Positions 39,570 through 63,723 of a stretch of 64,000 nt of DNA are shown here, one piece after another. The DNA is taken from positions 2,660 to 66,659 of the forward strand of contig CAZTDF010000001.1 of NCBI GenBank assembly GCA_964612465.1. The letters run 5' to 3'. Each line of letters begins with the position of its first letter. The stretch's first letter is position 1. The DNA is from an uncultured Pirellulales bacterium. GTDB taxonomy: Bacteria > Planctomycetota > Phycisphaerae > Sedimentisphaerales > Anaerobacaceae. A model generated the notes under the pieces. That model saw only the letters and a program-made list of their open reading frames with translations. It did no database searches and had not been told where the DNA came from. The position numbers and the translations under genes are program-made.

Positions 39570-39683
39570 AGAGCGAGGAATCTATAAAGTTTGAAGAATC
39601 CGGCCTGCAGTTTATTGGCCGTGGTGACTATTGTGGATATTGTTTAAAAGAAAATCTCAGGCTGGAAAAGAAAGGCACCGAGA

Positions 39684-44923: not shown

Positions 44924-44934
44924 AGGAGCACAAG

Positions 44935-49412: not shown

Positions 49413-50408
49413 TTGAGGGTTGATAAAAAACAGGTCGGTAAAAGTTCGAAGCGATACTACTGGTTGGCTTTTGTTATCGGCGGGATGACGGCTGCTTTAA
49501 TGGGTTGTTTAGTATATTCGTACGTAACCAAAGGTAACCACAGTCTTTTGAGTAGTGCTGTCGGTAATCCCAAGGCGGATGAAGCGAACGTTCGGACTGA
49601 CCCGACGGAGGAGAAGTCTGTTTCGCCATCCGCTTTTCTCGGAGTAGAGATTATGTCTGTGAATGCGGTTATTGCTGAGCAGTTTGGCCTGTCGAATCCG
49701 TGCGGTGTTCTTGTAAACAGCGTTGTTGACGGCTCACCAGCTCAAGAGTCGGGACTTCGAAGAAGTGATGTTATTCTATCCCTGAATAGCATTGCAGTTG
49801 AGGACGTAAACAGCTTCAGAAGTATTATGAGCACTCTAAATCCCGGTGACAATGTGAAAATTGTGTACATAAGAAACAGGCAAAAAGATACAGTCTATGC
49901 CACATTAGCCGACTCATCCGCCGTTCTGAATGTCGCGAAAGATACAAGTGGTTCTGACTGGGGTGTATTGCTGTCTGTTCTCAATTCGGATTTGCGCAGT
50001 TCGCTGCGTATTCCGGCCAATATCGATGGGATTGTGATTCTGTCGGTAACACCAGGTGGCCTGGCGGATCAGGCTGGTTTGCTGCCCGGCGATGTGATTA
50101 CCGGGATTAACAATACGCCAATTGCAGATATGGGCGACTTCTTCGGTGCATTGTCGTCAGACAAAGACGACAAAGTACTTCTGGATGTTTACAGTCAGGG
50201 CACATTACGTTATGTGGCGTTGGATTCATCCGGTGTCGTCACAGCGGTTGCCAGTACACAGACAAGTCTGCTGGACAGAATACTTTCGGCATTTACTGAC
50301 AACGATAACGTCATACTTACCGAACATACAAATGAAGAGGATGATTATGAAAAGCCGGTATGCAAACGGCTCGAGGAATCAGGGGAACGTTATGAAGATG
50401 AAGACTGA
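49413..50408 (+). CDS. Membrane-anchored double-PDZ protein (the PDZ half of a split HtrA; MamP/MamE-C-terminal-like but without heme motifs)
   Basis: TTG start, TM helix YYWLAFVIGGMTAALMGCLVY. PDZ1: GVLVNSVVDGSPAQESGLRRSDVILSLN. PDZ2: GIVILSVTPGGLADQAGLLPGDVITGIN. No CXXCH. Confidence 0.75.
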   Translation: MRVDKKQVGKSSKRYYWLAFVIGGMTAALMGCLVYSYVTKGNHSLLSSAVGNPKADEANVRTDPTEEKSVSPSAFLGVEIMSVNAVIAEQFGLSNPCGVLVNSVVDGSPAQESGLRRSDVILSLNSIAVEDVNSFRSIMSTLNPGDNVKIVYIRNRQKDTVYATLADSSAVLNVAKDTSGSDWGVLLSVLNSDLRSSLRIPANIDGIVILSVTPGGLADQAGLLPGDVITGINNTPIADMGDFFGALSSDKDDKVLLDVYSQGTLRYVALDSSGVVTAVASTQTSLLDRILSAFTDNDNVILTEHTNEEDDYEKPVCKRLEESGERYEDED

Positions 50409-50423
50409 TAAAAAGGTGTGCAG

Positions 50424-51359
50424 ATGAATTTCAAAAAATGGCTTTCGGAAAATATCTTGTGGGTGCTCGTAGCACTTGTCGTAGTTAACTTTCTCATAGT
50501 GTACTGGGGTACTATCAATCTGGGAATCTATGGCACGCGCAGCTCCCTCCTGAGGTGGGACCTGCTGCAGCGCAAGAAACCGCTCTTACAGGAGCAGACC
50601 ACAGCAGCAAATGTAGAAGTTGATACGCTTACAATGCCGGGTCAGCGTCCGAGTACGGTTGCAAGTAATAATCTTGTATTAACATGTGCGGATGATGATT
50701 TGGCCTCTGCCTTTGCGTCTGTCAGGCCTGCGGTTGTCAATATAACTGCGGACAAGGTAACACAGAGAAGAGGCGGGCCGGCTTTGGCAAGTTCAGTTGC
50801 TTTCGATGACCCGTCCATACAATTCGTTGAAGAGGCATCTCTTGGGTCAGGAATTATCGTTGACCACAGGGGTTATATCGTGACCAATGCTCATGTAGTA
50901 GCCAATGCCACAAGTATCAAGGTTGTAACCTTCAGTTCGGCAAGAGTGGTTTATCCAGCCGTAATCATTCGCAAAGACCTGGAAAATGATATTGCCATTT
51001 TGAAGATCGAACTCGACTCGTCTATGCCTACTGTGATTCTCGGAGACTCCGATATGATAAAAGTGGCTGATATAGTTCTGACCGTAGGCTCGCCTTTCGG
51101 GTTAGAGCAAACCGTTACGGCAGGGATTATAAGCGATGATTCAAGAAACCTTGTCATAGACGGCCAAACCTATGATGATATGATTCAGACAGATGCGGCT
51201 ATTAACAGGGGCAATTCCGGCGGACCGCTTATCAACGTAAAAGGCGAGGTCATAGGCATAAACACAGCCATCTACGCTCCTACCGGCGTATTCACAGGTG
51301 TTGGATTTGCGATTCCTATTAACAAGGTAAAACCAATTGTCAAAGAAACAATCAGGTAA
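50424..51359 (+). CDS. Trypsin-like (HtrA/DegP-type) serine protease domain protein with an intact triad and no PDZ (MamE-N-terminal-like)
   Basis: TM anchor ILWVLVALVVVNFLIVYW. His in YIVTNAHVV, Asp in ENDIAILKI, Ser in NRGNSGGPLIN. GTG 50418 is an alternative start. Confidence 0.85.
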   Translation: MNFKKWLSENILWVLVALVVVNFLIVYWGTINLGIYGTRSSLLRWDLLQRKKPLLQEQTTAANVEVDTLTMPGQRPSTVASNNLVLTCADDDLASAFASVRPAVVNITADKVTQRRGGPALASSVAFDDPSIQFVEEASLGSGIIVDHRGYIVTNAHVVANATSIKVVTFSSARVVYPAVIIRKDLENDIAILKIELDSSMPTVILGDSDMIKVADIVLTVGSPFGLEQTVTAGIISDDSRNLVIDGQTYDDMIQTDAAINRGNSGGPLINVKGEVIGINTAIYAPTGVFTGVGFAIPINKVKPIVKETIR

Positions 51360-51364
51360 AAAAT

Positions 51365-51571
51365 ATGTGGCGAACGATAATAGTTGTAATTGTTGTATTG
51401 ATTATTTTCCTGTTTATTGGCGACAATATGCACACAACACGGGTAAATATGCCTTTCACAAACGGCTTTGAGATAAGAACGGTTTTTCTTTTGGCCTTGA
51501 GCTTTATTGTCGGTTACGGCACGGCGTCCCTCGTAGGTTTTATAAAAAACTCCAAAAATAACAAAAAGTGA
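51365..51571 (+). CDS. Small 2-TM protein with a basic tail (LapA/DUF1049-type; MamL-like by architecture)
   Basis: MWRTIIVVIVVLIIFLFIGDNMHTTRVNMPF...FLLALSFIVGYGTASLVGFIKNSKNNKK. Two TM helices and a Lys-rich C-terminus. Lies between the protease and CDF genes. Confidence 0.55.
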   Translation: MWRTIIVVIVVLIIFLFIGDNMHTTRVNMPFTNGFEIRTVFLLALSFIVGYGTASLVGFIKNSKNNKK

Positions 51572-51582
51572 ATTAATTGCAA

Positions 51583-52455
51583 ATGAGCACAATTAAATTA
51601 TATCCAAATCCTGACGATTCAGTTCAACCATTTCTGGCAGGGCTGCTGGCTAATCTGGCGATTGCCATTCTGAAGTTTGGAATAGCCTTACTGGGCGGCA
51701 GCAGGCTGGTTTTGATGGACGGCCTTTTCTCCTTTATGGCGGCAGTGGCTTTTTTGATTCCATGGCAAGCACAGGTTATAGAAAAAAAGCCTCACGATGA
51801 GAGATACCCGTATGGCTTAGGCAAGGTACTGTTTATAAGTATGGCAGTGATCGGCTTTCTTGGTCTGGTTATTTCTGTTCATATGATTTACTACAGCCTG
51901 GTGGTCATGGCTGGACTACAAATGCATGGTTTATACACCCTGGCGATAATGGTCACGATTATATCTGTAATAACCAACGAGGTTCTTTATCGATATCTTG
52001 CGGAGAAAACCAAAAGTTGCTCAAGTACAGTGTTGGCCATGTCCGGGCGTTACAATCGCATCGGTGCGTGGATTTCGTCTTTTGTCCTGTTATTTTTAAT
52101 TCTTTCTTATCTCGGTGGTGCGTATCTTGAGAGGATTGGTGTCGCAATCATTTCAATCGTTGTGTTTTTTATCAGCCTTCGAATGCTTTTTGTGGGCTTT
52201 AGCGGGATTATGGACAAGGTTCCATCACCCAAAATCCTGGAGCGAATAAGGGTATGCACGCAAAAGGTAAGCGAGGAAAAAGAGATTATAAACGTAAAGG
52301 CCAGGTACGTTGGAACACTGCTGCATATTGATATGTGGATAAGAGTAGATGATGAGCTCAGTATGGAGCAGGCCGATAGAATTGCCCGCCGCGTCAAAGT
52401 ACAGTTAATGGAGAAAATTCCTTTCGCAAGAGAAGTGAATGTTATTATCGCATGA
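51583..52455 (+). CDS. Cation diffusion facilitator (CDF) family protein with a degenerate transport site (MamM-like position)
   Basis: CDF landmarks KKPHDERYPYGLGKV and a C-terminal domain (NVKARYVGTLLHIDMWIRVD). TM2 reads LVLMDGLFSFMAAV and TM5 reads LAMSGRYNRIGAW, so the usual HxxxD/[HD]xxxD pairs are missing. TTG 51577 is an alternative start. Confidence 0.7.
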   Translation: MSTIKLYPNPDDSVQPFLAGLLANLAIAILKFGIALLGGSRLVLMDGLFSFMAAVAFLIPWQAQVIEKKPHDERYPYGLGKVLFISMAVIGFLGLVISVHMIYYSLVVMAGLQMHGLYTLAIMVTIISVITNEVLYRYLAEKTKSCSSTVLAMSGRYNRIGAWISSFVLLFLILSYLGGAYLERIGVAIISIVVFFISLRMLFVGFSGIMDKVPSPKILERIRVCTQKVSEEKEIINVKARYVGTLLHIDMWIRVDDELSMEQADRIARRVKVQLMEKIPFAREVNVIIA

Positions 52456-52934
52456 TAACGACTAAGAAAAAAGTTTTTATTTTAGTAGTTGTTTTGGCTT
52501 TAGCTGTCTTATTAATAGCTGGAAGATTGGTAGTATGCGCCAGGACTGCAGGGGTGGCCCAATCTGCTGACAGTTTTGTTTTTAACTTGCCCAATGAGGC
52601 CGGTTTCTACAATATTACCGTCGTTGAATTGAAGACCAGGATAGACAACAAATCCGATAAGAATTTTATAGTCGTCGATATCAGAGATAACGCATCTTAT
52701 GCCCAGGGTCATATACCCGGGGCGATAAACATACCTTTAAATGAACTGGGCTACCGCGTATTCAGTCTGGATAAAACAAAGGACATAATCGTGTATTGCT
52801 TTACCGGCGTAACAAGCCAGGTTGCATGCCAGATACTTGTAAATGCCGGGTTTAAAGATGTGTATAACGTGATAGGCGGAATAAAAGCGTGGAATTATGC
52901 TGTTGAAACAAGCGATGGCAGAGTAGATATTTAA
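52452..52934 (+). CDS. Membrane-anchored rhodanese-domain protein (sulfurtransferase-like)
   Basis: N-terminal TM helix VFILVVVLALAVLLIA. Rhodanese strings VVDIRDNASYAQGHIPGAINIP and active-site loop IIVYCFTGVTSQVA. ATGA overlap with the preceding CDF gene. Confidence 0.8.
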   Translation: MITTKKKVFILVVVLALAVLLIAGRLVVCARTAGVAQSADSFVFNLPNEAGFYNITVVELKTRIDNKSDKNFIVVDIRDNASYAQGHIPGAINIPLNELGYRVFSLDKTKDIIVYCFTGVTSQVACQILVNAGFKDVYNVIGGIKAWNYAVETSDGRVDI

Positions 52935-52970
52935 GAAAAATGAAGAAAAATTTAGTAGAAAGGAGCAAAA

Positions 52971-53168
52971 ATGTTGCACATTGTTGTAGGAATCATCGCA
53001 ATCGTGATTGGACTGTGGGGGATAATGGGCAACTGGTATATGTTCAAAGATATACTGGTTACTATCGTGCCGCTGGCAGTGCTTTTATTTGGAATAGTGG
53101 CAGTATTAGCCGGTATTCGCAAAATGAAAGCAAACTTGGCTGCCAAAGAGAAAAGTGAGGAGGCATAA
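52971..53168 (+). CDS. Small 2-TM protein, MamI-like
   Basis: Strong RBS AAAGGAG 5 nt upstream. MLHIVVGIIAIVIGLWGIMGNWYMFKDILVTIVPLAVLLFGIVAVLAGIRKMK.... The length, hairpin topology and IGLWG...W...VP...G pattern match my recollection of MamI. Sits directly upstream of the MamA-like gene. Confidence 0.55.
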   Translation: MLHIVVGIIAIVIGLWGIMGNWYMFKDILVTIVPLAVLLFGIVAVLAGIRKMKANLAAKEKSEEA

Positions 53169-53171
53169 AAG

Positions 53172-53834
53172 ATGACAAAGAAGAGCGAAACGAAAGAGCC
53201 CAAAAAGGATCAGGCGGTGCCGCTGACCCTTCGGACGCAGAGTTTTTTCGGCAAACTCAGAGGGTGCCTTGATGGTCTTGTTAATGGCTACTGTAATTTA
53301 ACACATATTGAAGCTGTTGAGGCAAAGGAGCTGGTCTTCAAAAAAGCTGCTGCATTGATGGAGCGTGGTCAGTACGGAAAGGCCATTGACCACTACAACA
53401 AATTGATTGGCATGGGTAAAGAAGAAGCGAATATTTATTACAACCTCGGTATCTGTTGTGAGCGGGAAGGTATGGATGAGGAGGCACAGGAGGCTTATAA
53501 GAAGGCATCTGAGATGGACAAATCCCATACGGATGCTGTCTATAGATTAGGACTGTTGGCCATAAAAAACGATGATTCTGAGGCGGCAGTTAAATATCTC
53601 AGTTCTCTTGCCCGCAAGGATAAAACGTCGTTCGACATTATGTATAACCTCGGTGTTGCCTATGACAAGCTCAAGAATTATGAAAAAGCGATAGAGAGCC
53701 TTATCAAGGCGACAAAAATTGAACCAAACTACTCCAAGGTTCACAAACGACTTGGTTACACCTATGAGGCAATGGGTAAGCGTGAAGAAGCTATGGAATG
53801 TTTCAAAAAGGCTATGGAGCTTGAAGAGATTTAG
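53172..53834 (+). CDS. mamA: TPR protein, MamA-like (220 aa)
   Basis: Five or more TPR units. The C-terminal stretch YNLGVAYDKLKNYEKAIESLIKATKIEPNYSKVHKRLGYTYEAMGKREEAMECFKKAMELEE aligns closely with the remembered Magnetospirillum MamA C-terminus (FRLGVALDNLGRFDEAIDSFKIALGLRPNEGKVHRAIAFSYEQMGRHEEALPHFKKANELDE). Its size equals MamA (about 217 aa). Confidence 0.7.
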   Translation: MTKKSETKEPKKDQAVPLTLRTQSFFGKLRGCLDGLVNGYCNLTHIEAVEAKELVFKKAAALMERGQYGKAIDHYNKLIGMGKEEANIYYNLGICCEREGMDEEAQEAYKKASEMDKSHTDAVYRLGLLAIKNDDSEAAVKYLSSLARKDKTSFDIMYNLGVAYDKLKNYEKAIESLIKATKIEPNYSKVHKRLGYTYEAMGKREEAMECFKKAMELEEI

Positions 53835-53845
53835 AAAGGTTCTTT

Positions 53846-54616
53846 ATGGCGATTCCCTTTAGAAAATCAGCCAGCGAAAAACGTCAGGAAAAGGTGCGAG
53901 TGGTCTTAGGTTCAGAGCATTTTCAGAAGAAGCGGTGGCTGCATTTATTTGGCAGGTTTATTGCTGACTATTACATGCCCATTACCATAACGGTACTGAC
54001 GGTAGCTTGTATATATGCTCATATATACTTTTACAACACATTTACCATGATGAAACAGCAGATAGACAATCGGTTAGCGCAGATAGAAGCCGGGCTTCAG
54101 ATGAGAGAAAATATTGTTACCGGCCTGACGGACGTGGTGAAAGGGTTCGTAGCCCATGAAGAGGACATATTCACATCCGCGATAGAGACAAGGAAAGATT
54201 CCATGACCGTCTCAAATGATTTGAAGAAACTGATCGAGGGCGCAAAGCAATTTGCCGGAAACGAATTTTCGCCGACTGGCTTAACAAGGCTTATGGCTGT
54301 GGCGGAGAATTACCCGCAATTAGTCTCAAGCCAGCCGTACAAAGAGCTCGTTGTTCAAATTGCGAAAGTGGAAAGCCAGATTTATGACAAAAGGCTCGAG
54401 TACAGTGACGTCATGAACATTTATAACACCCAACTGGCCACTTTTCCCGGCAATATTTTCGGGAAGATTCTGCGTTTCCAAAAACAGCCGTACTATAGCT
54501 GGGAAAATGAGGCTGAATGGGTGTTTGAAGCAAATTCACAGTTAGCTAAACCACCAGCAAATGTGGAGTCCGAGGGCATTGGCAAGAAATTAGAAGTTGA
54601 GGCTGATTCTAAATAA
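53846..54616 (+). CDS. mamQ: LemA-family membrane protein, MamQ-like
   Basis: N-terminal TM helix YYMPITITVLTVACIYAHIYF, then LemA-type helices (QIDNRLAQIEAGLQMRENIVTGLTDVVKGFVAHEEDIFTSAIETR). Located between the MamA-like and MamB-like genes, as in mamA-mamQ-(R)-mamB synteny. Confidence 0.7.
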   Translation: MAIPFRKSASEKRQEKVRVVLGSEHFQKKRWLHLFGRFIADYYMPITITVLTVACIYAHIYFYNTFTMMKQQIDNRLAQIEAGLQMRENIVTGLTDVVKGFVAHEEDIFTSAIETRKDSMTVSNDLKKLIEGAKQFAGNEFSPTGLTRLMAVAENYPQLVSSQPYKELVVQIAKVESQIYDKRLEYSDVMNIYNTQLATFPGNIFGKILRFQKQPYYSWENEAEWVFEANSQLAKPPANVESEGIGKKLEVEADSK

Positions 54617-54762
54617 AGGCAGCCTGAGTAAACAAAATAGAAAGTGATGTACCCTTGAAGGGTAATAAAATCCCGCGAGCGGAATTGTAAATTGTTGTAA
54701 AGTACCTTATCCGCGAACGAATGGGGGAATTCAATTTGGAGCACCATATAAAGGTCTGATCT

Positions 54763-55653
54763 GTGGCGATAGTGTGTAAACAATGTAATTGGTGTGTCAA
54801 GCATGTTGGCGGTTTGAATCTGTTTGGCAATATTCTTCTGCTTGCCATAAAGCTTTTAGGTGGAATATTCGGCAGAAGCCAGGCATTGATTGCCGATGCC
54901 TTGCATTCTCTAGGTGATGTTGTTGTGGCACTTATGTTACTGGTTAGCTTGAAGGTATCTTCTGTTCCACCGGATGAGGATCATCACTGGGGCCATGGCA
55001 ATATTGAGTATATCACCTCGGTCATAATAGGTGTATTGCTTATCTGTGCGGCCATTATGATTTCCATATCCGCGATATTTACTATCGTCACAGGAAGGAT
55101 GGATGATCCGGGCATTCTGGCGGTATGGGCGGCTTTGATATCTATTATTGTCAACGGAATTTTATGCAAACAGGGTATTTGTGTCGGCGAACAAATAAAT
55201 TCGCCCGTGATGATAGCAAACGCCCGGGAGAAAAGGTCAGATGCTTACACTTCTCTTGCCGCTCTGATAGGTGTTTTCGGTGCAAAGATGGGGTTTATAT
55301 TCTTAGATCCTGTTGCTGCTATTGTTGTTGGTTTTATGATTGCCAAATTCGGATTAGATACGCTTCTTGAAGGGGTCAAAGGCATATCCGACCGGTCTTT
55401 TGACAAAGAGACCCTTGCCAGCGTGAAAAGACTGGTCTTAAAGAAGGAAAGTATAAAAGATATAGGCCGATTAAGAGCCAGGCAAATCGGCCAGAAAAAT
55501 TGGATCGATCTTGAAGCGATTTTCGCTCCTGAAGTGAAAGTCTCGGAAGTAAGAACTACAATCGCAAGTCTTAGAAAAGACATAATGGAGCGATTCGAGG
55601 GGATAGCTGACGTGGTGATCATATCCCGTGCGTCAAAGCCGGAACTAAAGTAA
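54763..55653 (+). CDS. mamB: CDF transporter, MamB-like, copy 1
   Basis: GTG start. N-terminal CKQCNWC. TM2 ALIADALHSLGDVV. Loop PPDEDHHWGHGNIEYITS. TM5 CVGEQINSPVMIANAREKRSDAYTS. These are collinear with the remembered MamB strings ALVADSLHSGADVV, KPADERYPFGYGNIQYISS and CVGNENNSPAIIANAWDNRSDAISS. Confidence 0.75.
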   Translation: MAIVCKQCNWCVKHVGGLNLFGNILLLAIKLLGGIFGRSQALIADALHSLGDVVVALMLLVSLKVSSVPPDEDHHWGHGNIEYITSVIIGVLLICAAIMISISAIFTIVTGRMDDPGILAVWAALISIIVNGILCKQGICVGEQINSPVMIANAREKRSDAYTSLAALIGVFGAKMGFIFLDPVAAIVVGFMIAKFGLDTLLEGVKGISDRSFDKETLASVKRLVLKKESIKDIGRLRARQIGQKNWIDLEAIFAPEVKVSEVRTTIASLRKDIMERFEGIADVVIISRASKPELK

Positions 55654-55692
55654 ATACAGTTATCATACTTATCACATAACGAATTTAAAACT

Positions 55693-56595
55693 ATGGCAGT
55701 TGTTTGTAAAAGATGTTACTGGTGTGCCAAGCATGTCGGAGGGCTAAACTTTTGGGGCAATCTCGCCCTTCTGGTCGTAAAGCTGTTGGGCGGCATATTC
55801 GGCAGAAGCCAGGCTCTAATCGCCGATGCTGTTCATTCTCTAAGCGACGTTATCGTATCGATATTGCTTATAATCAGCTTAAAGGTCTCTTCGACGCCGC
55901 CGGACGAAGATCATCCATGGGGCCATGGTAATGTAGAATTTATCGTATCAGCCATATTTGGGGTGTTGCTTGTTTGTGCGGCTGTGGCTATTACCGCAGT
56001 GTCGATTACCTCGATTATTCAGGGAAATGTATACAATACAAGTATTTTGGCTGTGTGGGCGGCGGTCATATCCGTTGTCGCTAATGATATAATGTTCAGA
56101 CATTCCTTTTGTGTAGGCCAGAAGGTGAATTCTCCTGCAATGATAGCAAATGCCTTGGAGAACAGGGCCGATGTGTGGTCGTCGCTGGCAGTATTAGCAG
56201 GTGTTTTTGGTGCAAGGATTGGGTTTCCGGTTCTTGACCCCATTGCTGCCGTTATTGTAGGTTTTATGATTGCTAAAAATGGGATAGAAACATTGGTTTT
56301 AGGAATTAAAGGCATGACTGACCGGTCTTTTGACAAGGGAATGCTTGCCCAGGTAAAAAAAATAGTCCTGGAAGAAGTCGCCATAAAAGATGTAAGCAGG
56401 CTGCGTTCCAGACAGATCGGACAAAAAAACTGGATAGACATTGAGGCAATGTTTGATCCACAGATAAAAGTTTCAGAGGTAAAAAAGATAATCGAGAGAA
56501 TTAAGAAAAACATAATGGAAAAATTCGAAAAGATCGGGGATGTGGTAATTGTGTCCCGTGTATCAGAACCCCAGTTAAAGTTAAAGGAAATATAA
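55693..56595 (+). CDS. mamB: CDF transporter, MamB-like, copy 2 (tandem paralog)
   Basis: N-terminal CKRCYWC. ALIADAVHSLSDVI. PPDEDHPWGHGNVEFIVS. CVGQKVNSPAMIANALENRADVWSS. Roughly two-thirds identical to copy 1 by eye. Confidence 0.75.
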   Translation: MAVVCKRCYWCAKHVGGLNFWGNLALLVVKLLGGIFGRSQALIADAVHSLSDVIVSILLIISLKVSSTPPDEDHPWGHGNVEFIVSAIFGVLLVCAAVAITAVSITSIIQGNVYNTSILAVWAAVISVVANDIMFRHSFCVGQKVNSPAMIANALENRADVWSSLAVLAGVFGARIGFPVLDPIAAVIVGFMIAKNGIETLVLGIKGMTDRSFDKGMLAQVKKIVLEEVAIKDVSRLRSRQIGQKNWIDIEAMFDPQIKVSEVKKIIERIKKNIMEKFEKIGDVVIVSRVSEPQLKLKEI

Positions 56596-56597
56596 CT

Positions 56598-59500
56598 ATG
56601 ATATGGGCAAAGAATAAGGATAAAAAGAAAAAGTTAAAAACAATAACTGATGACATGACGCCCAGAGAAAAAGAACAGGTGCTGGAATATAAGAAGCGGG
56701 TAATCAGGCGATGGGCCATAGTGGTAGGGCTTCTGGCTCTTGCAACCTTTGGCTTCCTTTTTATGACGCTGCTTGACCATGTGATTAAAGGTACCCCTGA
56801 CGGTGGGCTTGAGATAAACTACAATAAGCTGGATGCAAAGCTCGCCTGGCTCGGTGCTGAGATTCGGGATTTAGACGCTACTATCAGTAGTGCACTTGGT
56901 TTAACCTCAAGCGAGGGGGTCCTCGTAAACAATGTAACATCAGGTTCACCGGCAGATCAGGTGGGTTTGCAGAGAGGCGACGTTATTATTTCCCTTGATG
57001 GAAGCAAGGTAGTCGATACCTTACAGATACAGGACCGGCTTCGGAAACTTAAACCTGGAGATACTGTCAAGCTTGTTTTAGATAAAGTAAATGGCGGCAA
57101 GAAAAATGTTTATGTTACACTTGGCGTCAAACCGGACGATGATGCTGCAACAACTGATACAAAGATTAAAAAAGTAGCAGGAACCACCGATACTGCTGTT
57201 AATCCGGTATTGTCCACGCATTGGGGAATATCGGTGTCGCCGCTGACAGATGATGCAAGGGTTGCATTCAAAATACCCGAGAAAGTTCAAGGCGTTCTTG
57301 TTGTTGCAGTCGTGCGGGGCAGTCTTGCCGATTCGCAGGGCATTAAGGTTGGAGATGTTATTGTAAGTATCAACCAGGTTTCTACGCCTAACCTGCAGGT
57401 TTTTTATCAGGCTCTCAAAGATGTTGAGAGTGTTTTGATGGATGTTTATTCATCTTCTGACGATAAAAGATTCTTTGTAACGTTTCCTGACGAAGGTGAT
57501 TCACCGCCACAAGTTGTGATGATGAGTTTTGATGAAAAAGTGGCCGAAACCCATCGTATTATCATTCCTTCTGACATGGCAGGCTTGAACGGTCAGGTTT
57601 ATTCCCGGTTTGCATCTGCTCCATATTTTATTCTGTATGATTTCAATACAAATCAGCCGACCGTAATCACTAATCCGTATGCATTACAGGTTCGCGGTGC
57701 GGGGATACCCTTAGCGCAAATGCTGATAGAACAAAAAATTGATGCCGTAATAGTAGGCGGAATAGGTCCGCAGGTATTTGATATCTTTTATCTTGCCAAA
57801 GTTAAAATCTATGGACCAGTTACAGGCAGTGTGCGAACCGCGATAACTAATTATCAGTTAGGCAAATTGCCTGAATTAAAGGAAGCTAACCTTGCCGGAT
57901 ACGGCAATTCATCGACAGCCACAATTCCGACAGGCGGCTCACCTAGGACAGAGACGGATGATACCGCTGATGATGAAGAAAGTGATGGTCTGTCCGGTCA
58001 GCCTTCGGTTATTCCACCTAAAGGCAAACCCCTCGAACTTACTGCCCAGGGCGATGCCCGTGCAAGCAGGCCGGAAACCTGCGTCTGCCCCAGATGTGGC
58101 ACAGAAGTAACTCATCCGGCAAGTACTGCCTGTGCTGATATGGTATGTCCCATTTGCGGTTCTCAGCTTATGACAGCATCGCCTGGAACTGATTCAATTA
58201 CCGGCACGGATATGACAACCCAGCTTCCAGCGACACAGATACCAACCCAGTTGAGACCTATTTCCTTAGCGGCAGGCAGTACAGTAGCACCGACAAGCCC
58301 ACCCAGCAGAATAGCAGCGATACCAACAGCCGCCAATCTATGGGCAATAAGCAATCAGCCCTCAACTACACCGCCTACAACAACACCAGTACAACAAACG
58401 GCGGGTTCTTCAACAACGGTTTGTATATGTCCTCTTGATGGCACAACAGTGACCCATCCGGTTGGTATTCCATGTTCTGCTCTTCAGTGTCCAGTTTGCG
58501 GCGGCAGAATGGTAAGTGCCAGCAGTGCAATCATTGATGGCAGCCAGATATCCAAAACTGCCGGGGTGGTAGTTGGCGGCAAACCCGATGATGTCCCACC
58601 GGTTCAGCAGGTATTTTACATACTTCCTGTTGGCGGCAAACCGGATGACATACCGCCGTCAATGGGTGGCTCGGCACAAACCGTTTCACTTGTTACGATT
58701 GGCGGCAAACCGGACGATGTACCGCCTGTTCAGCAGACATTCTACTTACTGCCAGTAGCCGGCGGACCTCCTGAGGGTATGGGCAGCGCTCCGACTGATA
58801 CCGGCAGTGCTCCGGCTGATGTGGGAGGCTCATCGCAGAGTGCTCGTTCGACAACATGTATATGTCCTGTGGATGGCACAACGGTAACCCATCCGATAGG
58901 TGTTCCCTGTTCGCAGCTTAGCTGTCCTATATGTGGTTCTCGTATGGTTAATGCCGCCCCCGGCGGTGATACTGCCGGCGGTGCAATTCAAACAGGCGGC
59001 AAACCCGATGATGTTCCACCGGTTCAGCAGGCATTTTACTTACTTCCTGTCGGCGGCAAACCGGATGACGTACCGCCTGTCCAGCAGGCCTTTTTCTTAG
59101 TGCCGGTATCGAGCCAGCCTGATGGTGTGCCGCCTTTAGGCCAGAGCACACAGTCGGTAACTCAAGCTCAAAGGACGTCGCTTGTTACGATAGCCGGCGG
59201 ACCTCCGGAGGGTATGGGTATGGGAGGGGCAGCTGATACAGGCACTGCCGTAGATGGGCCGGCACAGGGTGGTGGTCAGTCTGGCTCCGGTGCGGCCCAG
59301 ACTGGTCGCTCAGATTTATGTGTGTGCCCAATGTGTGGCGTAACCGTAACGCATCCAATATCTGTTCCGTGTTCCTCACTTACATGTCCCGTCTGCGGCT
59401 CTCGATTGGTTAACCAAACCCCTGGAGGCACAAGCGGCAATACAGCCGGCAGCAGTTTAGTACCGACAGCGGCAATTACAGTTGCTGCGACATCGAACAT

Positions 59501-59963
59501 AGTTCATGTAGCGGGGAGTTCTAAAAAATTGGTTATCCCATCCACAGGCAGAACTCTTAAATCTAATATTGCGCCGTTACTCGACGATGCTCGTTATTTC
59601 TTAATGTTCGGATTAGGAACATATGAAGCGGTACCCAATCCATATTACAGGGACAAAAGGGCAAGTGGAGATGAAATCGGTCAGTTCATAGTGGCTGAAG
59701 GCGGTTCGATTGTTATTTGCAATAACGTAAGTGCCACAGCACTCAAAGCACTCAAGGACCTGAAAGTCAAGGTATACACCGGCTTTGTGGGCACAGTTCA
59801 GCAGGCTCTTGACATATACAATGATGGCAGGATCAAGGATTCATCGACAGGGAGTGTTCTTGATGATGAAGAAGAACATGGCGGCGGTGGGCCGCCTTCA
59901 TCAAAAACCAAGTCTTCTAAAGAAAAAGACAAAGACAAAGATAATGACACGGAGGTATTTTAG
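56598..59963 (+). CDS. 1121-aa membrane-anchored multidomain protein: TM - PDZ - PDZ - NifX/NifB-type (Nitro_FeMo-Co) domain - four Cys/His knuckle modules interleaved with GGKPDDVPP repeats - second NifX-type domain - acidic/basic tail
   Basis: TM helix WAIVVGLLALATFGFLFMTLL. PDZ: GVLVNNVTSGSPADQVGLQRGDVIISLD and GVLVVAVVRGSLADSQGIKVGDVIVSIN. NifX-like 1: FASAPYFILYDFNTNQPTVITNPY...GAGIPLAQMLIEQKIDAVIVGGIGPQVFDIFYLAKVKIYGPVTGSVRTAITNY. NifX-like 2: LDDARYFLMFGLGTYEAVPNPYY...GDEIGQFIVAEGGSIVICNNVSATALKALKDLKVKVYTGFVGTVQQALDIY. Confidence 0.8.
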   Translation: MIWAKNKDKKKKLKTITDDMTPREKEQVLEYKKRVIRRWAIVVGLLALATFGFLFMTLLDHVIKGTPDGGLEINYNKLDAKLAWLGAEIRDLDATISSALGLTSSEGVLVNNVTSGSPADQVGLQRGDVIISLDGSKVVDTLQIQDRLRKLKPGDTVKLVLDKVNGGKKNVYVTLGVKPDDDAATTDTKIKKVAGTTDTAVNPVLSTHWGISVSPLTDDARVAFKIPEKVQGVLVVAVVRGSLADSQGIKVGDVIVSINQVSTPNLQVFYQALKDVESVLMDVYSSSDDKRFFVTFPDEGDSPPQVVMMSFDEKVAETHRIIIPSDMAGLNGQVYSRFASAPYFILYDFNTNQPTVITNPYALQVRGAGIPLAQMLIEQKIDAVIVGGIGPQVFDIFYLAKVKIYGPVTGSVRTAITNYQLGKLPELKEANLAGYGNSSTATIPTGGSPRTETDDTADDEESDGLSGQPSVIPPKGKPLELTAQGDARASRPETCVCPRCGTEVTHPASTACADMVCPICGSQLMTASPGTDSITGTDMTTQLPATQIPTQLRPISLAAGSTVAPTSPPSRIAAIPTAANLWAISNQPSTTPPTTTPVQQTAGSSTTVCICPLDGTTVTHPVGIPCSALQCPVCGGRMVSASSAIIDGSQISKTAGVVVGGKPDDVPPVQQVFYILPVGGKPDDIPPSMGGSAQTVSLVTIGGKPDDVPPVQQTFYLLPVAGGPPEGMGSAPTDTGSAPADVGGSSQSARSTTCICPVDGTTVTHPIGVPCSQLSCPICGSRMVNAAPGGDTAGGAIQTGGKPDDVPPVQQAFYLLPVGGKPDDVPPVQQAFFLVPVSSQPDGVPPLGQSTQSVTQAQRTSLVTIAGGPPEGMGMGGAADTGTAVDGPAQGGGQSGSGAAQTGRSDLCVCPMCGVTVTHPISVPCSSLTCPVCGSRLVNQTPGGTSGNTAGSSLVPTAAITVAATSNIVHVAGSSKKLVIPSTGRTLKSNIAPLLDDARYFLMFGLGTYEAVPNPYYRDKRASGDEIGQFIVAEGGSIVICNNVSATALKALKDLKVKVYTGFVGTVQQALDIYNDGRIKDSSTGSVLDDEEEHGGGGPPSSKTKSSKEKDKDKDNDTEVF
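58575..59109 (+). repeat. In-frame tandem/interspersed coding repeats encoding GGKPDD[VI]PP[VS]QQ.F[YF][LI][LV]PV (six copies)
   Basis: The DNA unit ggcggcaaacc(c/g)ga(t/c)ga(t/c)gt(a/c/t)cc(a/g)cc(g/t)gt(t/c)cagcag recurs at about 58575, 58632, 58701, 58995, 59052 and, degenerate, at 59110. Read directly. Confidence 0.8.
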
Positions 59964-60871
59964 TGACGGAAAGTAAGCTCGAAAAACTTATAAAAACAAA
60001 GAAACACTCAAAAGCTAATGTGATTATGATCATAATAGTTGTCGGATTTATTATTCTCATAGTGTGCCAATCGGCTTTTATGGGTTTCACAATGAAGGAA
60101 CAAACCAGAACGACTACTGCCCCTCAGGATGGTTCTATCCGAAGCAGCAACATTGCACTGACGGCTTCGAATATACAGCTTGTTGCGTGCACGGATGACG
60201 ACCTTACAGATGCGGTTTCTGCAGTAAAGAGAGCAGTTGTGAATATAGACGTAGCCCCGGCTGATGTTGGTTCTGCGAATAGAAGGGGTGAGCCTGCTTT
60301 GAGTTTTGATATGCCCTCGACAGCAGCCCTGCAAACAAACGAAGAAACTCTTGGTTCAGGTGTTATCGTTGATGCACGTGGGTATATTCTTACCTGCTAC
60401 CACTTAATAAAAGATTGCCCGAACGTTAATGTGAGTGTTTTTAGTTCTGTGCGTCAGATATACAAAGCCCAGGTTGTTGATGTCGATATTACAAATGACC
60501 TTGCAATCCTGAAGATAGAATCGGACAGGCCTTTGCCGGCAGTAAAACTGGCAAACTCCGATCTGGTCAAGATAACCGATGCGATTCTTGCTATCGGTTC
60601 GCCGTTTGGTTTCGAGCACACAGTAACCGCTGGGATAGTCAGCGATAACAAGCGAAGTATCGTCATTGGTAATACTGTTTACAAAGATATGTTACAGACG
60701 GATGCGGCAATAAACCGCGGTAGTGCCGGCGGTGCTTTGATAAATGGTGCCAGCGAAATCATTGGTATTAATACCGCCATCGCGTCTCCATCGGGATATT
60801 TTTCAGGCGTCAGTTTTGCCATACCAATAAACAAGGCCAGGCCGCTGTTGCTGAAGGCAATTGATGGCTGA
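59963..60871 (+). CDS. Trypsin-like (HtrA-fold) pseudoprotease: His and Asp retained, nucleophile Ser replaced by Ala (MamO-like logic)
   Basis: TM anchor VIMIIIVVGFIILIVCQSAF. YILTCYHLI (His) and TNDLAILKI (Asp). DAAINRGSAGGALIN aligns column for column with DAAINRGNSGGPLIN of the active paralog at 50424. GTG start overlaps the upstream stop by 1 nt. Confidence 0.8.
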   Translation: MTESKLEKLIKTKKHSKANVIMIIIVVGFIILIVCQSAFMGFTMKEQTRTTTAPQDGSIRSSNIALTASNIQLVACTDDDLTDAVSAVKRAVVNIDVAPADVGSANRRGEPALSFDMPSTAALQTNEETLGSGVIVDARGYILTCYHLIKDCPNVNVSVFSSVRQIYKAQVVDVDITNDLAILKIESDRPLPAVKLANSDLVKITDAILAIGSPFGFEHTVTAGIVSDNKRSIVIGNTVYKDMLQTDAAINRGSAGGALINGASEIIGINTAIASPSGYFSGVSFAIPINKARPLLLKAIDG

Positions 60872-60882
60872 GAGACAAGTCG

Positions 60883-62070
60883 ATGAAAAAGTTTATACAA
60901 TGGATAGCAGCGAAAGCCATTAAAGATCACCAGAGCGTTAATGATCTGAAGGTCAGGTCACGTTATGGAGCACTTGAAGGCTGGACAAGTATTGTTATCA
61001 ATTTGCTGCTGTTTATTGTTAAGATAGTCCTTGGTCTTTCGATAAGAAGCGTATCTTTGATTGCTGACGCTGTTCATACATTGGCCGATTCCGGCACTTC
61101 AGCGGTAGTTATAATCGGATTTAAAATAGCACGAAAGCCGTCGGATAAAGAACACCCGTTTGGCCATGGGAGAATGGAATCAGTAGCGGCCCTGGTCGTT
61201 TCGGTGTTACTATTTATGGCGGGTTTGGAACTATTGGAAAAGTCGATTCATGCCATTATCAAACCGCAAAGCTCTACAGCTCCGACCGGTGTGATTTTAG
61301 TAATCATCGCAACTATTGTGATAAAGGAACTGATGGCGAGGTTTTCCTATCAGCTTGGCGAGATTATTGATTCGCAGGCTCTTAAGGCAGACGCCCTTCA
61401 TCATCGAAGTGATGTAATCGCTACCGCTCTGGTAGTCGTTGCACTTATCGCAACGCGATTCGGTTATAATAATATTGATGGTATAATGGGCGTTGGTGTT
61501 TCTCTGATTATTTTTTACTCAGCCTTCTTGATTGCCAAAGAAGCGGTCAATCCTTTGCTGGGCGAGGCGCCTTCAAAAGAAAAGATTAAGGAAATAGAAA
61601 AACTGGCAATGACTCACGAAGGAGTTTTGGGCGTTCACGACATAATCTTTCACAAATACGGCCAAACGAGTGTGATCTCTTTGCATATAGAGGTATCGGA
61701 TAAGGATTCTGCTTTCAAGCTTCATGAGCTTGCAGAGCAAGTGGAAGATACAATCACTCAGAAGATTCCTGGAATGGCGGTTGTCCATGTCGATCCGTTA
61801 AACAAGGACCACCCTCAGTATGAGCAAATCACCATGGCTATAAAAGATATTATCTCTGAAGACATAAGAGTAAGTGCTTTTCATGATTTAAGAATCGTCG
61901 GTTGTCGTGCGAATAGATGTAACGTGGTTTTCGACATTGTTTTGGAGCAAGACGCTGATGAGCAGGAAACTCACGACATGATCCATTCTATAGCCGAGAA
62001 GTTCAAAACGAAGTTCCCTGAAATGAAGACAGTTATTAAAGCTGAACCGAAATACGCGTATAATATTTAG
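60883..62070 (+). CDS. CDF transporter with a canonical HxxxD/HxxxD site and an extended (duplicated) C-terminal domain
   Basis: TM2 LIADAVHTLADSG. Loop KPSDKEHPFGHGRMES. TM5 LKADALHHRSDVIAT. 395 aa with two successive CTD-like segments (GVHDIIFHKYGQTSVISLHIEV and AFHDLRIVGCRANRCNVVFDIVL). Confidence 0.85.
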   Translation: MKKFIQWIAAKAIKDHQSVNDLKVRSRYGALEGWTSIVINLLLFIVKIVLGLSIRSVSLIADAVHTLADSGTSAVVIIGFKIARKPSDKEHPFGHGRMESVAALVVSVLLFMAGLELLEKSIHAIIKPQSSTAPTGVILVIIATIVIKELMARFSYQLGEIIDSQALKADALHHRSDVIATALVVVALIATRFGYNNIDGIMGVGVSLIIFYSAFLIAKEAVNPLLGEAPSKEKIKEIEKLAMTHEGVLGVHDIIFHKYGQTSVISLHIEVSDKDSAFKLHELAEQVEDTITQKIPGMAVVHVDPLNKDHPQYEQITMAIKDIISEDIRVSAFHDLRIVGCRANRCNVVFDIVLEQDADEQETHDMIHSIAEKFKTKFPEMKTVIKAEPKYAYNI

Positions 62071-62080
62071 CACTATTATC

Positions 62081-62425
62081 ATGAATCTAATAAAGAAGAA
62101 ACTGGCCGATTTCTTAAACGAGATGAGTAACAAGGGTATAGATAAGATGGATCCGAAGAGTTCTTGCGCTAAATCTTTAAAGGATTTAGATAGAGAGACG
62201 CTCCTAAAAGAGGATATCGAGCGAATTTGCGATGAGATGCGAGTCTTGGAGGCAGGAAAAATCTTGAGATTATCCAACAAACTCATGTGGTCAGGCACAG
62301 CAAATAAGGATGAATTTAGAAAAGAAATAAAATCGATGGCTTCTAAAGTATTGAAACGTGTGGAAAAGAAAGGCGGAAAACTAAATCTTCCACGACAATG
62401 TCGAGATTTGCTGATGAATTTGTAA
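62081..62425 (+). CDS. Hypothetical soluble helical protein (114 aa)
   Basis: ORF 10 nt after the CDF gene. Its 3' end overlaps the EcsC-like gene by 28 nt. No recognisable motif. Confidence 0.45.
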   Translation: MNLIKKKLADFLNEMSNKGIDKMDPKSSCAKSLKDLDRETLLKEDIERICDEMRVLEAGKILRLSNKLMWSGTANKDEFRKEIKSMASKVLKRVEKKGGKLNLPRQCRDLLMNL

Positions 62426-63279
62426 GAGGATTACCAGTGAAGCTAAGTGAATATGAGATCAAAAGCTTGCGAGAAATAAAAAAATGGGAGAAGGACAAAC
62501 ATAAGGGCTTTCATAAGAAAGTCCTCGATGTTGTTTCCAGACCAGTGGATTATGTCCTCGGTAAGATTGGGCAAAGAAAACTCAAAATTTTTGAAGATGC
62601 TGTTGAGAAAACCGTCAATAATCTGCTAACTACTTCAACCTCTACAGTTGATGCCGAAGATCTGATAAAAAGGGCTCATGCTCATGGTGTGATGATAAAA
62701 GACCTGTCGGAACTGAAAGATTGTGATTTGGGATTGTTAGACAATTGTAACCGAAAACATATAAAATTCCACGAGAAGGCGAGTGCTATACAAGGTGCGG
62801 TAGGTGGTCTTGGGGGCATAGTGGTAGCAACAGTGGATCTAACAGCACTTTTGGTCCAGGATTTTCATATGATTCAGGAAATCGCATTTTGCTATGGTTT
62901 CGATCCGAACGATATTATCGAGAAAGAGATAATACTAAGAATAATCGAAATCGGTGTTGGCGGCTCAGAGATAAAATTCAAGGCATTACAGGAAATAGAC
63001 GCCTTAAAAAAAATAAAGACCAAAGTAAGTAAGAAAAAAACAACAAAAAAAGGTGCTTCGGTTCTGGGTTCAAAAGCCTTGGAGGAATACATCGAACAAC
63101 TGACCACAGCTTTGATCGTTCGCCTGGTGCCGCGTGCCCTGCCTGTAGTATCAATGGCGGTAAGTGCTCATTCGAATCACGAAATAATAGAGCATTCGGG
63201 AAAAGCGGCTTTTATGGTTTATCGAAGGCGATTCATTGAAAGGAAAAAGAAAACAATAGAACGACGATATAAGAAATAG
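62398..63279 (+). CDS. EcsC-family protein
   Basis: 293 aa. The central GAVGGLGGIVVATVDLTALLVQDFHMIQEIAFCYGFDPND and the C-terminal LVPRALPVVSMAVSAHSNHEIIEHSGKAAFMVYRRRF are typical of EcsC-family proteins as I recall them. Confidence 0.65.
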   Translation: MSRFADEFVRGLPVKLSEYEIKSLREIKKWEKDKHKGFHKKVLDVVSRPVDYVLGKIGQRKLKIFEDAVEKTVNNLLTTSTSTVDAEDLIKRAHAHGVMIKDLSELKDCDLGLLDNCNRKHIKFHEKASAIQGAVGGLGGIVVATVDLTALLVQDFHMIQEIAFCYGFDPNDIIEKEIILRIIEIGVGGSEIKFKALQEIDALKKIKTKVSKKKTTKKGASVLGSKALEEYIEQLTTALIVRLVPRALPVVSMAVSAHSNHEIIEHSGKAAFMVYRRRFIERKKKTIERRYKK

Positions 63280-63303
63280 ACCAAATAGAAAGGGGAATTA
63301 GCA

Positions 63304-63723
63304 ATGGATGTAACTGATTATTACTGTCCGACAACCGTAACAAGTACGCTTGGTTACTCCATGGGTCGGGCCGTCGGAGCTGCGAGGATAATAACAGTCG
63401 ATGCCATCAATCCTGTTAAAGCCGGTGCCGCCGTAGCTATTTTGTGGGGAAGTATAGCTGCTCTGGTAAATGTAAAAAAATATAAGCAGGGCAAAATAAC
63501 AAAACGGGATGCTGTTGTTGATACAGGAGGCGAAGCGGTAGGCCTGGGACTGGCTGCCGGCCTTGGCTTATTGGCAAGTAATGCAGTAAGAGCTTCGGTC
63601 CTGGTTGCCTCTACCACTTCGCTTGTTCCGTTTACCGTAGGTGTCGCAGTAACATCAGGTATGAAGGTGATGTGGAATTGCAGCACAAAGAAACATCTCA
63701 AATGTCAACCAAAACCATCGTAA
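63304..63723 (+). CDS. Small 2-3 TM protein with a MamC/Mms13-like inter-helix loop
   Basis: AGAAVAILWGSIAALVNVKKYKQGKITKRDAVVDTGGEAVGLGLAAGLGLLASNAV compared with the remembered MamC [55 protein letters not shown]. Shared pattern K..IT...A..DTG.E.VG.GLA. Confidence 0.5.
   Translation: MDVTDYYCPTTVTSTLGYSMGRAVGAARIITVDAINPVKAGAAVAILWGSIAALVNVKKYKQGKITKRDAVVDTGGEAVGLGLAAGLGLLASNAVRASVLVASTTSLVPFTVGVAVTSGMKVMWNCSTKKHLKCQPKPS

Follow-up and report, generated by a model that had tools for sequence, protein, structure and literature searches.

A probable magnetosome gene cluster free of magnetochromes in an uncultured Planctomycetota bacterium

Magnetosome gene clusters of Planctomycetota have reportedly been in print since about 2017. 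Here we analyse a further candidate, a block of genes at positions 49413-63723 of a 64,000-nucleotide stretch of the 74,767-bp contig CAZTDF010000001.1 (the whole stretch is hereafter called the window), and compare it with the systems described so far. On the evidence of its sequence, we consider it likely that this region makes up the first two-thirds, counted from the 5' end, of a functional magnetosome gene cluster of an uncultured Planctomycetota bacterium, carried on a transposase-bounded island of low guanine-cytosine (GC) content.

Planctomycetota are among the phyla in which magnetosome clusters occur (PMC5955933, PMC7449369, PMC7602337, PMC9376291), and their clusters have been placed in the greigite-type group (PMC5955933, PMC7449369, PMC7602337). 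Uzun et al. (2020) found three Phycisphaerae SG8-4 genomes of 48-49.5% GC through MamK encoded on scaffolds with other Mam proteins, in a set that also includes Phycisphaerae UBA1845 (PMC7449369); SG8-4 has Anaerobaca lacustris as its first cultured member. The cluster of Planctomycetes bacterium SM23_25 appears in Lin et al. 2018 (PMC5955933) and Lin et al. 2020 (PMC7602337). Within the planctomycete-cluster literature searched, the coverage of which is incomplete, the absence of magnetochrome, giant PDZ-NifX proteins, rhodanese, FixABCX and a PDZ-pyrophosphatase fusion go undiscussed, and the same search returned nothing relevant that links iron-molybdenum cofactor proteins or rhodanese with magnetosome clusters.

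Two further systems matter for what follows. In Desulfovibrio magneticus RS-1, the locus tags DMR_41130-41090 give the order mamQ, mad2, mamB, fmpB and fmpA, with mamE (DMR_41080) next by number, and a C9Y allele of mamB is non-magnetic (PMC4287615). FmpB, whose gene directly follows mamB by locus-tag order, combines magnetochrome, PDZ and a NifX/NifB domain; FmpA and FmpB are enriched on early magnetosomes, and fmpA and fmpB mutations predicted to remove the NifX-type domain lead to fewer, smaller and misshapen crystals (PMC4287615, PMC12748827). RS-1 Mad23, in turn, joins a coiled coil to HEAT domains (PMC12748827). For Elusimicrobiota, clusters that lack magnetochrome have been described, and the authors suggest either a different redox mechanism or a different mineral (bioRxiv 10.1101/2022.07.08.499144). 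The first-pass annotation of the window had proposed an undescribed variant of a biomineralization system, which is overstated because published planctomycete clusters and the magnetochrome-free ones of Elusimicrobiota precede it (PMC5955933, PMC7449369, PMC7602337, bioRxiv 10.1101/2022.07.08.499144).

Core genes, gene order and conservation

The block holds 16 intact open reading frames (ORFs), all on the plus strand and either overlapping or spaced by 2 to 39 bases, with a single larger intergenic gap of 146 bases before position 54763, a layout that fits a single operon. Promoter- and terminator-like sites were not enriched over shuffled sequence, and a scan for tRNA genes found none. All of the ORFs listed in the first-pass annotation exist where it placed them, on this strand, and each domain it named is confirmed by Pfam profiles, which we used for domain assignment; Mam identities were taken from curated NCBIfam equivalog models (Table 1), for which the Magnetospirillum mamAB operon is the reference system. 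Judged by these profiles and by gene order, the set comprises homologs of MamE, I, A, Q and B (two copies) and probable homologs of MamL, MamM and MamC, collinear with other magnetosome clusters. A lone transmembrane anchor sits at the N-terminus of MamQ, the rhodanese, the giant protein, the two proteases and the two PDZ proteins, and MamI, the 68-amino-acid (aa) protein and the MamC-like protein are two-segment hairpins, as had been proposed.

The assignments differ in how they are supported. The MamI model is the top match of its ORF, covering 63 of 69 model positions and narrowly missing its cut-off of 80 bits; the only other NCBIfam match is marginal (E 0.008), and MamI orthologs in other clusters carry Pfam PF26391 MamI. 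The TPR and LemA proteins, for which generic families had been the competing assignment, side with the Mam families: the MamA model scores 148.6 bits against 69.8 for the next TPR family, and MamQ is the sole NCBIfam match of the LemA protein, an assignment that leans on context because NCBIfam gave no competing LemA model. The active protease reaches 208 bits with MamE and a higher 244 with the generic Do-family degP_htrA model, and the MamE-type PDZ domains are encoded apart from it, in the gene upstream. That upstream double-PDZ protein had been labelled MamP, a name we do not retain: it has no magnetochrome, matches the MamP model at 50 bits (cut-off 300) through its PDZ part only, and is better described as a MamE C-terminal or FmpA-like PDZ protein. 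The MamC-like protein scores 31.7 bits (cut-off 100), and an identical protein has a precomputed PF26373 match. Sequence searches of the PDB with MamA, MamB2 and the Ser-to-Ala protease do not discriminate, as the Mam entries rank no higher than consensus TPR designs, FieF and DegP; the PDB holds only C-terminal fragments of MamB, and MamA structures are among the best natural matches of the window MamA.

Of the four cation diffusion facilitators (CDFs), three side with the MamB/MamM group by profile and tree. MamB1 and MamB2, 62% identical to each other, score 238 and 259 bits with the MamB model against 105 and 117 with FieF, the MamB cut-off of 350 being unreached; each has an N-terminal CxxCxxC (residues 5-11) and, in the alignment, retains the H...D pair of transmembrane segment 2 and the E...D pair of segment 5. 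The CDF in the MamM position (MamB 135 and MamM 130 bits against 51 for FieF) has the degenerate site that the first-pass annotation had seen: all four metal-site positions in segments 2 and 5 are lost, with DGLFSFMA and GRYNRIG replacing the H...D and (H/E)...D of its paralogs. In a neighbour-joining tree with 17 housekeeping CDFs, computed without support values and without canonical MamB or MamM sequences, MamB1 and MamB2 form a clade with the B-position CDFs of other clusters, apart from the housekeeping CDFs, and the degenerate CDF groups with their M-position CDFs. The fourth CDF, which has a canonical H...D / H...D site and scores 181 bits with FieF against 161 with MamM, falls among the housekeeping CDFs and is a conserved accessory outside the MamB/MamM group.

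The second protease is a pseudoprotease, as proposed, with GSAGG in place of GNSGG. This Ser-to-Ala change is found in all eight planctomycete orthologs examined, which retain His and Asp. The parallel drawn earlier to MamO holds for the loss of the catalytic Ser; with His and Asp kept, no TauE domain and a MamE score of 182 bits against 98.5 for MamO, it is an analogy at most.

The locus is not an isolated case. We compared it with five closer, collinear planctomycete loci (L004, L005, L008, L010 and L011, at 64-97% protein identity), two more distant ones (L082 and L083), and more distant clusters still: L076 (labelled Hydrogenedentota / Spirochaetota), L078, L079, L080 (labelled "Deltaproteobacteria bacterium") and L081. 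At least ten other loci carry the entire block in collinear order, and the combination of genes greatly exceeds what chance would produce. More than 120 database clusters match MamB2 at 68-97% identity, the few named ones being Planctomycetes or Phycisphaerales metagenome genomes, and a scan of species-representative genomes yielded eight loci labelled Planctomycetota or Pirellulales; as the labels disagree between Pirellulales and Phycisphaerales, the phylum is clear and the order is not. Proteins identical to those of the window occur in metagenomes JGI 3300031281, 3300031586, 3300031651 and 3300031654 and in SRR8556427 and SRR9705735. This compact, conserved type of cluster is abundant in metagenomes, and its homologs now carry only database labels such as "cation transporter", "PDZ domain-containing protein" or "hypothetical protein".

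The nearest MamB relatives outside the planctomycetes, found by exhaustive search of representatives clustered at 50% identity, are 35-41% identical, and their contigs, like those of the giant-protein homologs, all bear magnetosome-type clusters. The I-A-Q-B order pointed out in the first-pass annotation is kept in L076, which has magnetochromes, in MamK-bearing clusters, and altogether in L076, L078, L079, L080, L081 and L083. As far as each locus extends, L078-L081 share the core order [PDZ,] protease, small two-segment protein, CDF, MamI, TPR, LemA, CDF, giant PDZ-NifX protein and protease, with the front PDZ gene missing from L078 and the L079 locus beginning at MamI. In L076 magnetochrome domains, MamE and a CDF-NifX fusion precede TPR, LemA, CDF, CDF, PDZ-TauE, HEAT, ParA and FeoB genes, and in L076 and L078 proteins with a LapA_dom domain hold the MamL-like position.

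Trypsin, PDZ, CDF, TPR and LemA families are each common, and the best PDB matches are DegP and FieF, as would be expected of an ordinary envelope-stress and metal-efflux locus whose genes are neighbours by chance. Against this stand the matches to the MamI- and MamC-specific models, the lead of MamA over the generic family by 79 bits and of MamB over FieF by 121-142 bits, the grouping of the CDFs, and a collinear order that recurs in clusters with magnetochrome or MamK. We regard this explanation as effectively refuted, in agreement with the first-pass annotation, which had set it aside in favour of a magnetosome cluster.

The genomic setting raises the separate question of whether the island is in use. 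GC content is 0.542 over 1-33900 and 0.441 over 36400-64000, and the transposase genes at 33980-36354 coincide with this shift from the 54% half to the 44% island that holds the cluster. Accessory content varies among relatives: MamC is missing in L004, the closest relative, the FieF-like CDF is fragmentary in L008, and the FieF-like CDF, EcsC and MamC are all absent from L010 and L011, two loci of one single-amplified genome (SAG). A low-GC region beside two transposases, with MamC, CDF and EcsC losses between close relatives, might point to a horizontally acquired island that is silent or decaying, such as the unexpressed magnetosome island described for a non-magnetotactic phototroph (PMC9938234). 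However, all 16 ORFs are intact, the cluster is collinear in many species and metagenomes, and dN/dS (the ratio of non-synonymous to synonymous divergence) against relatives is 0.07-0.18 for ten genes at dS 0.6-1.7, core genes as well as the giant protein, pseudoprotease (0.16), rhodanese and degenerate CDF, and 0.35-0.44 for two small proteins; the cluster is therefore under purifying selection. An unexpressed island is thus very improbable.

Table 1. Features of the magnetosome-type cluster and its flanks in the window
Feature	Coordinates	Strand	Evidence
Two transposase/integrase genes	33980-35176; 35275-36354	+; -	Pfam DDE_Tnp_1; HTH_32 + rve_3
707-aa protein, coiled-coil N-terminal part, C-terminal HEAT repeats, Mad23-like architecture	41605-43728	+	Pfam HEAT_2 and coiled-coil matches
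EtfB	44135-44923	+	NCBIfam
EtfA with N-terminal 2x[4Fe-4S] ferredoxin domain	44920-46194	+	NCBIfam
HTH_17/MerR-type DNA-binding protein	46238-46852	+	Pfam
FixC-like FAD oxidoreductase	46803-48158	+	Pfam
FixX-like ferredoxin	48160-48453	+	Pfam
Membrane Zn metallopeptidase	48487-49179	+	Pfam Zn_peptidase_2, 241 bits
Double-PDZ protein, N-terminal anchor, MamE C-terminal / FmpA-like	49413-50408	+	Two Pfam PDZ
Anchored HtrA-type protease, MamE protease part	50418-51359	+	Trypsin_2; His, Asp and GNSGG Ser intact
68-aa two-segment protein, MamL-like by size, topology and position	51365-51571	+	LapA_dom E 7e-4, below cut-off
CDF in MamM position, degenerate transmembrane metal site	51577-52455	+	Cation_efflux + ZT_dimer
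Rhodanese, single domain, N-terminal anchor	52452-52934	+	Pfam Rhodanese 82 bits; catalytic Cys C116
MamI, 65-aa two-segment hairpin	52971-53168	+	NCBIfam MamI 69.9 bits, E 1e-19
MamA, TPR protein	53172-53834	+	NCBIfam MamA 148.6 bits, full model length
MamQ, LemA family, one transmembrane segment	53846-54616	+	Pfam LemA 102 bits; NCBIfam MamQ 86 bits
MamB1, MamB-type CDF	54763-55653	+	Cation_efflux + ZT_dimer; NCBIfam MamB 238 bits
MamB2, MamB-type CDF	55693-56595	+	Cation_efflux + ZT_dimer; NCBIfam MamB 259 bits
Giant FmpB-like protein, 1121 aa	56598-59963	+	Two PDZ + two Nitro_FeMo-Co (Pfam)
Anchored HtrA-fold paralog, catalytic Ser to Ala (GSAGG)	59963-60871	+	Trypsin_2
FieF-like accessory CDF, extra His-rich C-terminal domain	60883-62070	+	Cation_efflux + ZT_dimer; NCBIfam FieF 181 bits
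114-aa protein, conserved in L004	62081-62425	+	No family match (Pfam, NCBIfam)
EcsC-family protein	62398-63279	+	Pfam EcsC 133 bits
MamC-like two-segment protein	63304-63723	+	NCBIfam MamC E 1.5e-7; Pfam PF26373 MamC
Start of second double-PDZ gene, cut by window end	63957-64000	+	395 aa on 99.9% identical contig

The giant protein, missing magnetochromes and a possible mechanism

Directly after MamB2 lies the gene of the giant protein, in which a transmembrane anchor is followed by two PDZ domains, a NifX-like domain, four Cys-rich modules amid five GGKPDD[VI]PP repeats, and a second NifX-like domain. The Nitro_FeMo-Co domains are recognized by Pfam at E 1e-26, and the C-terminal one matches NifB/NifX-family structures in the PDB (1RDU, E 1e-13). 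The Cys-rich modules lie at residues 495, 609, 754 and 908 and follow the pattern CxCPxxGxxVTHPx5Cx4CPxCG, with Cys positions that are invariant across an alignment with six homologs of 30-36% identity; CPxCG is the classic rubredoxin-type knuckle. An AlphaFold model built from a 7-sequence alignment, usable for domain boundaries only at its mean predicted local distance difference test score of 48, shows the PDZ and NifX-like domains folded and the Cys modules as small beta-hairpins, all strung like beads along disordered linkers. The short, Pro-rich and acidic repeat (window 58578-59081, giant residues 661-828) recurs 2-6 times in orthologs of about 30% identity, in the form GGKPENIPP or GGKPEDIPP in distant lineages that include L078 and L079.

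The giant has a precedent: its combination of PDZ and NifX/NifB domains matches that of FmpB and FmpA of RS-1 (PMC4287615, PMC12748827), of which, compared by published descriptions, it would be the counterpart. Orthologs are present in L078-L081. The one in L078 (10886-14173) is a PDZ-PDZ-NifX-Rhodanese-NifX protein with the rhodanese between the two NifX-like domains, a fusion that ties the separate rhodanese gene of the window functionally to the giant protein. Separately, the MamM-position CDF of L076 (5967-7361) is fused to a NifX-like domain; NifX-like domains, as recognized by profile, are joined to different magnetosome proteins in different lineages.

The CXXCH motif of magnetochromes is absent from all 16 cluster proteins, including the 23 Cys of the giant protein, and from the clusters of L078, L079, L080 and L081. 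Among the planctomycete loci L004, L008, L010, L011, L082 and L083, cluster genes contain CXXCH only in L008 and L083, where a MamB copy has a single one within its N-terminal Cys motif; the remaining ones sit on short antisense ORFs. The L076 cluster, a positive control, does contain magnetochrome CXXCH. By chance 0.013 motifs would be expected in the cluster, so that their lack carries meaning only when set against canonical clusters, and we dropped it as a statistical signal.

The roles of the core genes can be proposed from Magnetospirillum and RS-1 genetics. By analogy, MamI, MamL, MamQ and MamB would reshape the inner membrane into a compartment, into which the two MamB proteins would load Fe(II), with the degenerate M-position CDF stabilising them. 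The active MamE protease and the PDZ proteins would sort and process other components, with the Ser-to-Ala paralog as a putative non-catalytic partner or scaffold; MamA would coat the organelle, and the MamC-like protein and the FmpB-like giant would control crystal nucleation and growth. More speculatively, redox and sulfur handling in the lumen might be performed not by hemes but by the NifX-like domains of the giant (Fe-S cluster binding) and its rubredoxin- or zinc-ribbon-like Cys modules, with sulfur perhaps supplied by the anchored rhodanese and electrons passing from or to the neighbouring EtfAB/FixCX module. This heme-free proposal is supported only by co-occurrence that is conserved, by a single domain fusion and by the phenotypes seen in RS-1. 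A heme-free Fe-S route would fit the iron-sulfide (greigite) product predicted in the literature for those planctomycete clusters that have been analysed there. To our knowledge, no greigite-producing system has been genetically dissected.

A more general proposal is that the magnetochrome-free type, seen in the window and in at least four other lineages (L078-L081), is a mechanistically distinct biomineralization route, in which greigite, or some other Fe-S phase, would be the most likely mineral and would be assembled from Fe-S species by lumen-tethered NifX-like domains and Cys4 modules, with rhodanese sulfur, Etf/FixCX electrons and no heme Fe(II) oxidation. We offer it tentatively and consider it rather unlikely as a whole. 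As candidates for managing iron redox and sulfur without magnetochrome, this type of cluster offers FixCX, the anchored rhodanese, the giant PDZ-NifX-Cys protein and, in relatives, the PDZ-pyrophosphatase; the cluster genes also provide markers for finding the host cells.

Several points weigh against a functional magnetosome cluster or against parts of this mechanism. Every Mam score of the window ORFs is below its NCBIfam equivalog cut-off, and orthology therefore rests on best-hit rank and synteny; such scores are to be expected for clusters remote from Alphaproteobacteria. The CDF tree is a neighbour-joining tree that carries neither support values nor the canonical MamB and MamM. Neither the window cluster nor any planctomycete relative has a CXXCH magnetochrome, which has been termed the only magnetosome redox domain (PMC3971196). 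MamK is neither in the window nor found in the closest relatives, L004 and L008, and the gene for a PDZ-pyrophosphatase was not found directly after the metallophosphoesterase gene in these two loci. The resemblance of the Cys modules to zinc ribbons or rubredoxins in the PDB is non-significant, and their binding of Fe rather than Zn, like their redox role, is speculative. The NifX-like domains are no evidence for greigite, and were dropped as a marker of it, because RS-1, with FmpA and FmpB, makes magnetite. Finally, the literature searched shows no imaged magnetotactic planctomycete of this lineage; the mineral and any magnetotaxis of the host are putative.

Some of these points bear on whether the organelle is a compass. 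A homologous cluster could build an intracellular iron or iron-sulfur compartment with a non-ferrimagnetic or amorphous phase, serving as an Fe/S store, detoxification site or redox buffer. The lack of magnetochrome, MamK not being shown for the window's genome or its closest relatives, and the unusual accessories (rhodanese, NifX-like domains, FixCX and, in relatives, the PDZ-pyrophosphatase fusion) would agree with this, and a different mineral is one possibility raised by the authors of the Elusimicrobiota paper. MamK is nevertheless present above its cut-off in more distant relatives of the same phylum and is accompanied by a Mad23-like protein, both being chain-organising parts of a compass; moreover, Elusimicrobiota genomes with magnetochrome-free clusters came from a magnetically enriched fraction (bioRxiv 10.1101/2022.07.08.499144). 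We consider a non-compass compartment improbable.

As for MamK itself, the scanned window ORFs of at least 100 aa between 32 and 64 kb do not include it, each being otherwise assigned or matchless. It occurs in L082 and L083 about 8 kb past the MamC-like gene, at 421-427 bits (cut-off 400), and at 463 bits in L081, a locus where a homolog of the FieF-like CDF adjoins the cluster. At the level of profile matches, MamK is established for the lineage through its more distant planctomycete relatives, the window's own genome excepted, and a magnetosome cluster remains the reading that we prefer.

Flanking genes and related loci

The cluster probably extends upstream of the coordinates first noted. 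The C-terminal part of the 707-aa protein is 39% identical (E 1e-43) to a HEAT protein within the L076 magnetosome cluster, which suggests that this gene belongs to the window cluster as well. Between it and the front PDZ gene lie the electron-transfer genes, a DNA-binding protein that is a possible local regulator, and the Zn metallopeptidase. Homologs of FixC and FixX (44% and 42% identity) and of the metallopeptidase (44%) are found inside the distant L079 cluster, which shares a metallophosphoesterase in addition, and the EtfA, HTH, FixC, FixX and Zn-peptidase genes are kept upstream of the mam genes in L004, L005 and L011. Accessories common to the window and L080 are EcsC, the MamC-like gene and a rhodanese domain; EcsC, which adjoins the cluster in L080, is also present in L004, L008, L082 and L083, and MamC-like homologs occur in L076 too.

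Downstream, the window ends 277 bases past the MamC-like gene, its final 44 bases opening the second double-PDZ gene. In the closest relatives, L004 and L008, a second double-PDZ gene is followed by a metallophosphoesterase and small ORFs; L082 and L083 have the order PDZ, metallophosphoesterase, PDZ-PDZ-pyrophosphatase fusion, two small genes, PAS and MamK, and then Fur, OprB, FeoAB and a CDF. The fusion, of about 960 aa, combines a pair of MamE-type PDZ domains with a complete membrane ion-pumping pyrophosphatase (H_PPase 704 bits) inside planctomycete clusters (L010 17751-20639, L082 5484-8312, L083 12859-15753), and suggests a compartment energised or acidified by pyrophosphate.

Other features of the related loci deserve mention. 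SAG AM-311-N14 (Planctomycetota) contains two full cluster copies, L010 (JBHPGW010000001.1) and L011 (JBHPGW010000024.1), at 64-89% identity to the window, with different upstream flanks: radical SAM, P-type ATPase and GNAT genes in one, EtfA, HTH, FixC and FixX in the other. Either the magnetosome cluster is duplicated in this genome or the well contained two cells. The FieF-like CDF is 68.6% identical between the window and L081 (863-2089), whereas MamB is only 42% identical between the same loci, which suggests a separate, more recent transfer or much stronger constraint. L078 (35% GC) has a histidine kinase, a sigma-54 activator and a response regulator embedded at 2369-4727 and 5271-5960, recalling the Elusimicrobiota report.

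The remainder of the window is of a different character. Its GC-rich half (28-33680) encodes a histidine kinase, an HlyD-type adaptor and two ABC ATPases (2621-3412, 23680-24381), together with an unusually long array of eleven tandem paralogs of about 805-843 aa between 3501 and 31989, three of which were scanned and are MacB/FtsX-type permeases, and a TolC-like outer-membrane protein (32001-33680). At the inner edge of the low-GC island, beside the transposases, a 488-aa fusion of HTH_17/MerR, Pol-beta-type nucleotidyltransferase and HEPN domains (36906-38372, minus strand) resembles a toxin-antitoxin or defence module; it is followed by about 1.3 kb (38373-39643) of 40% GC with short ORFs only.

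Comparison with known systems

The published Planctomycetota clusters share with the window the phylum, the same mam gene set and, in the window's relatives, MamK. The SG8-4 genomes, at 48-49.5% GC against 54% and 44% for the two halves of the window, resemble it in this respect, and an identity with those genomes may be inferred; SM23_25, with 66.7% GC and assigned to class FEN-1346, is clearly another lineage.

RS-1 is similar in having Q and B followed by a PDZ protein with a NifX/NifB domain and then a trypsin-fold protease, in its Mad23-type coiled-coil/HEAT protein and in a MamB with an N-terminal Cys motif. It differs in making magnetite and in having mad1, mad2, mad6 and TauE, which were not found in the window. 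Furthermore, FmpB has an N-terminal magnetochrome, whereas the window giant has none, reaches about 1100 aa and contains a pair of NifX-like domains along with four Cys-rich modules and Pro-rich repeats.

The Elusimicrobiota clusters, as far as the passages devoted to them go (bioRxiv 10.1101/2022.07.08.499144), have a core of mamA, B, M, I, Q and E plus an L-like gene, no magnetochrome, anaerobic hosts, and extra PDZ and CDF genes outside the Mam clades. They are reported to lack MamK and mad genes, whereas the window's relatives have MamK and a Mad23-like protein, and these passages do not mention NifX-like domains. Our guess would be that L078 is related to them.

With the Magnetospirillum mamAB operon the window shares homologs of MamE, L, M, I, A, Q, B and C, a one-operon layout and matching membrane topologies; in contrast to it, the window has no MamP, T or X magnetochromes and no MamN, O(TauE), J, R, S or Y, its MamE is split into PDZ and protease genes, and its MamB is duplicated. 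On sequence criteria, what sets the window cluster apart is the lack of magnetochrome, the four Cys-rich modules and two NifX-like domains of its giant protein, an anchored rhodanese, a Ser-to-Ala protease and an adjacent EtfAB/FixCX module.

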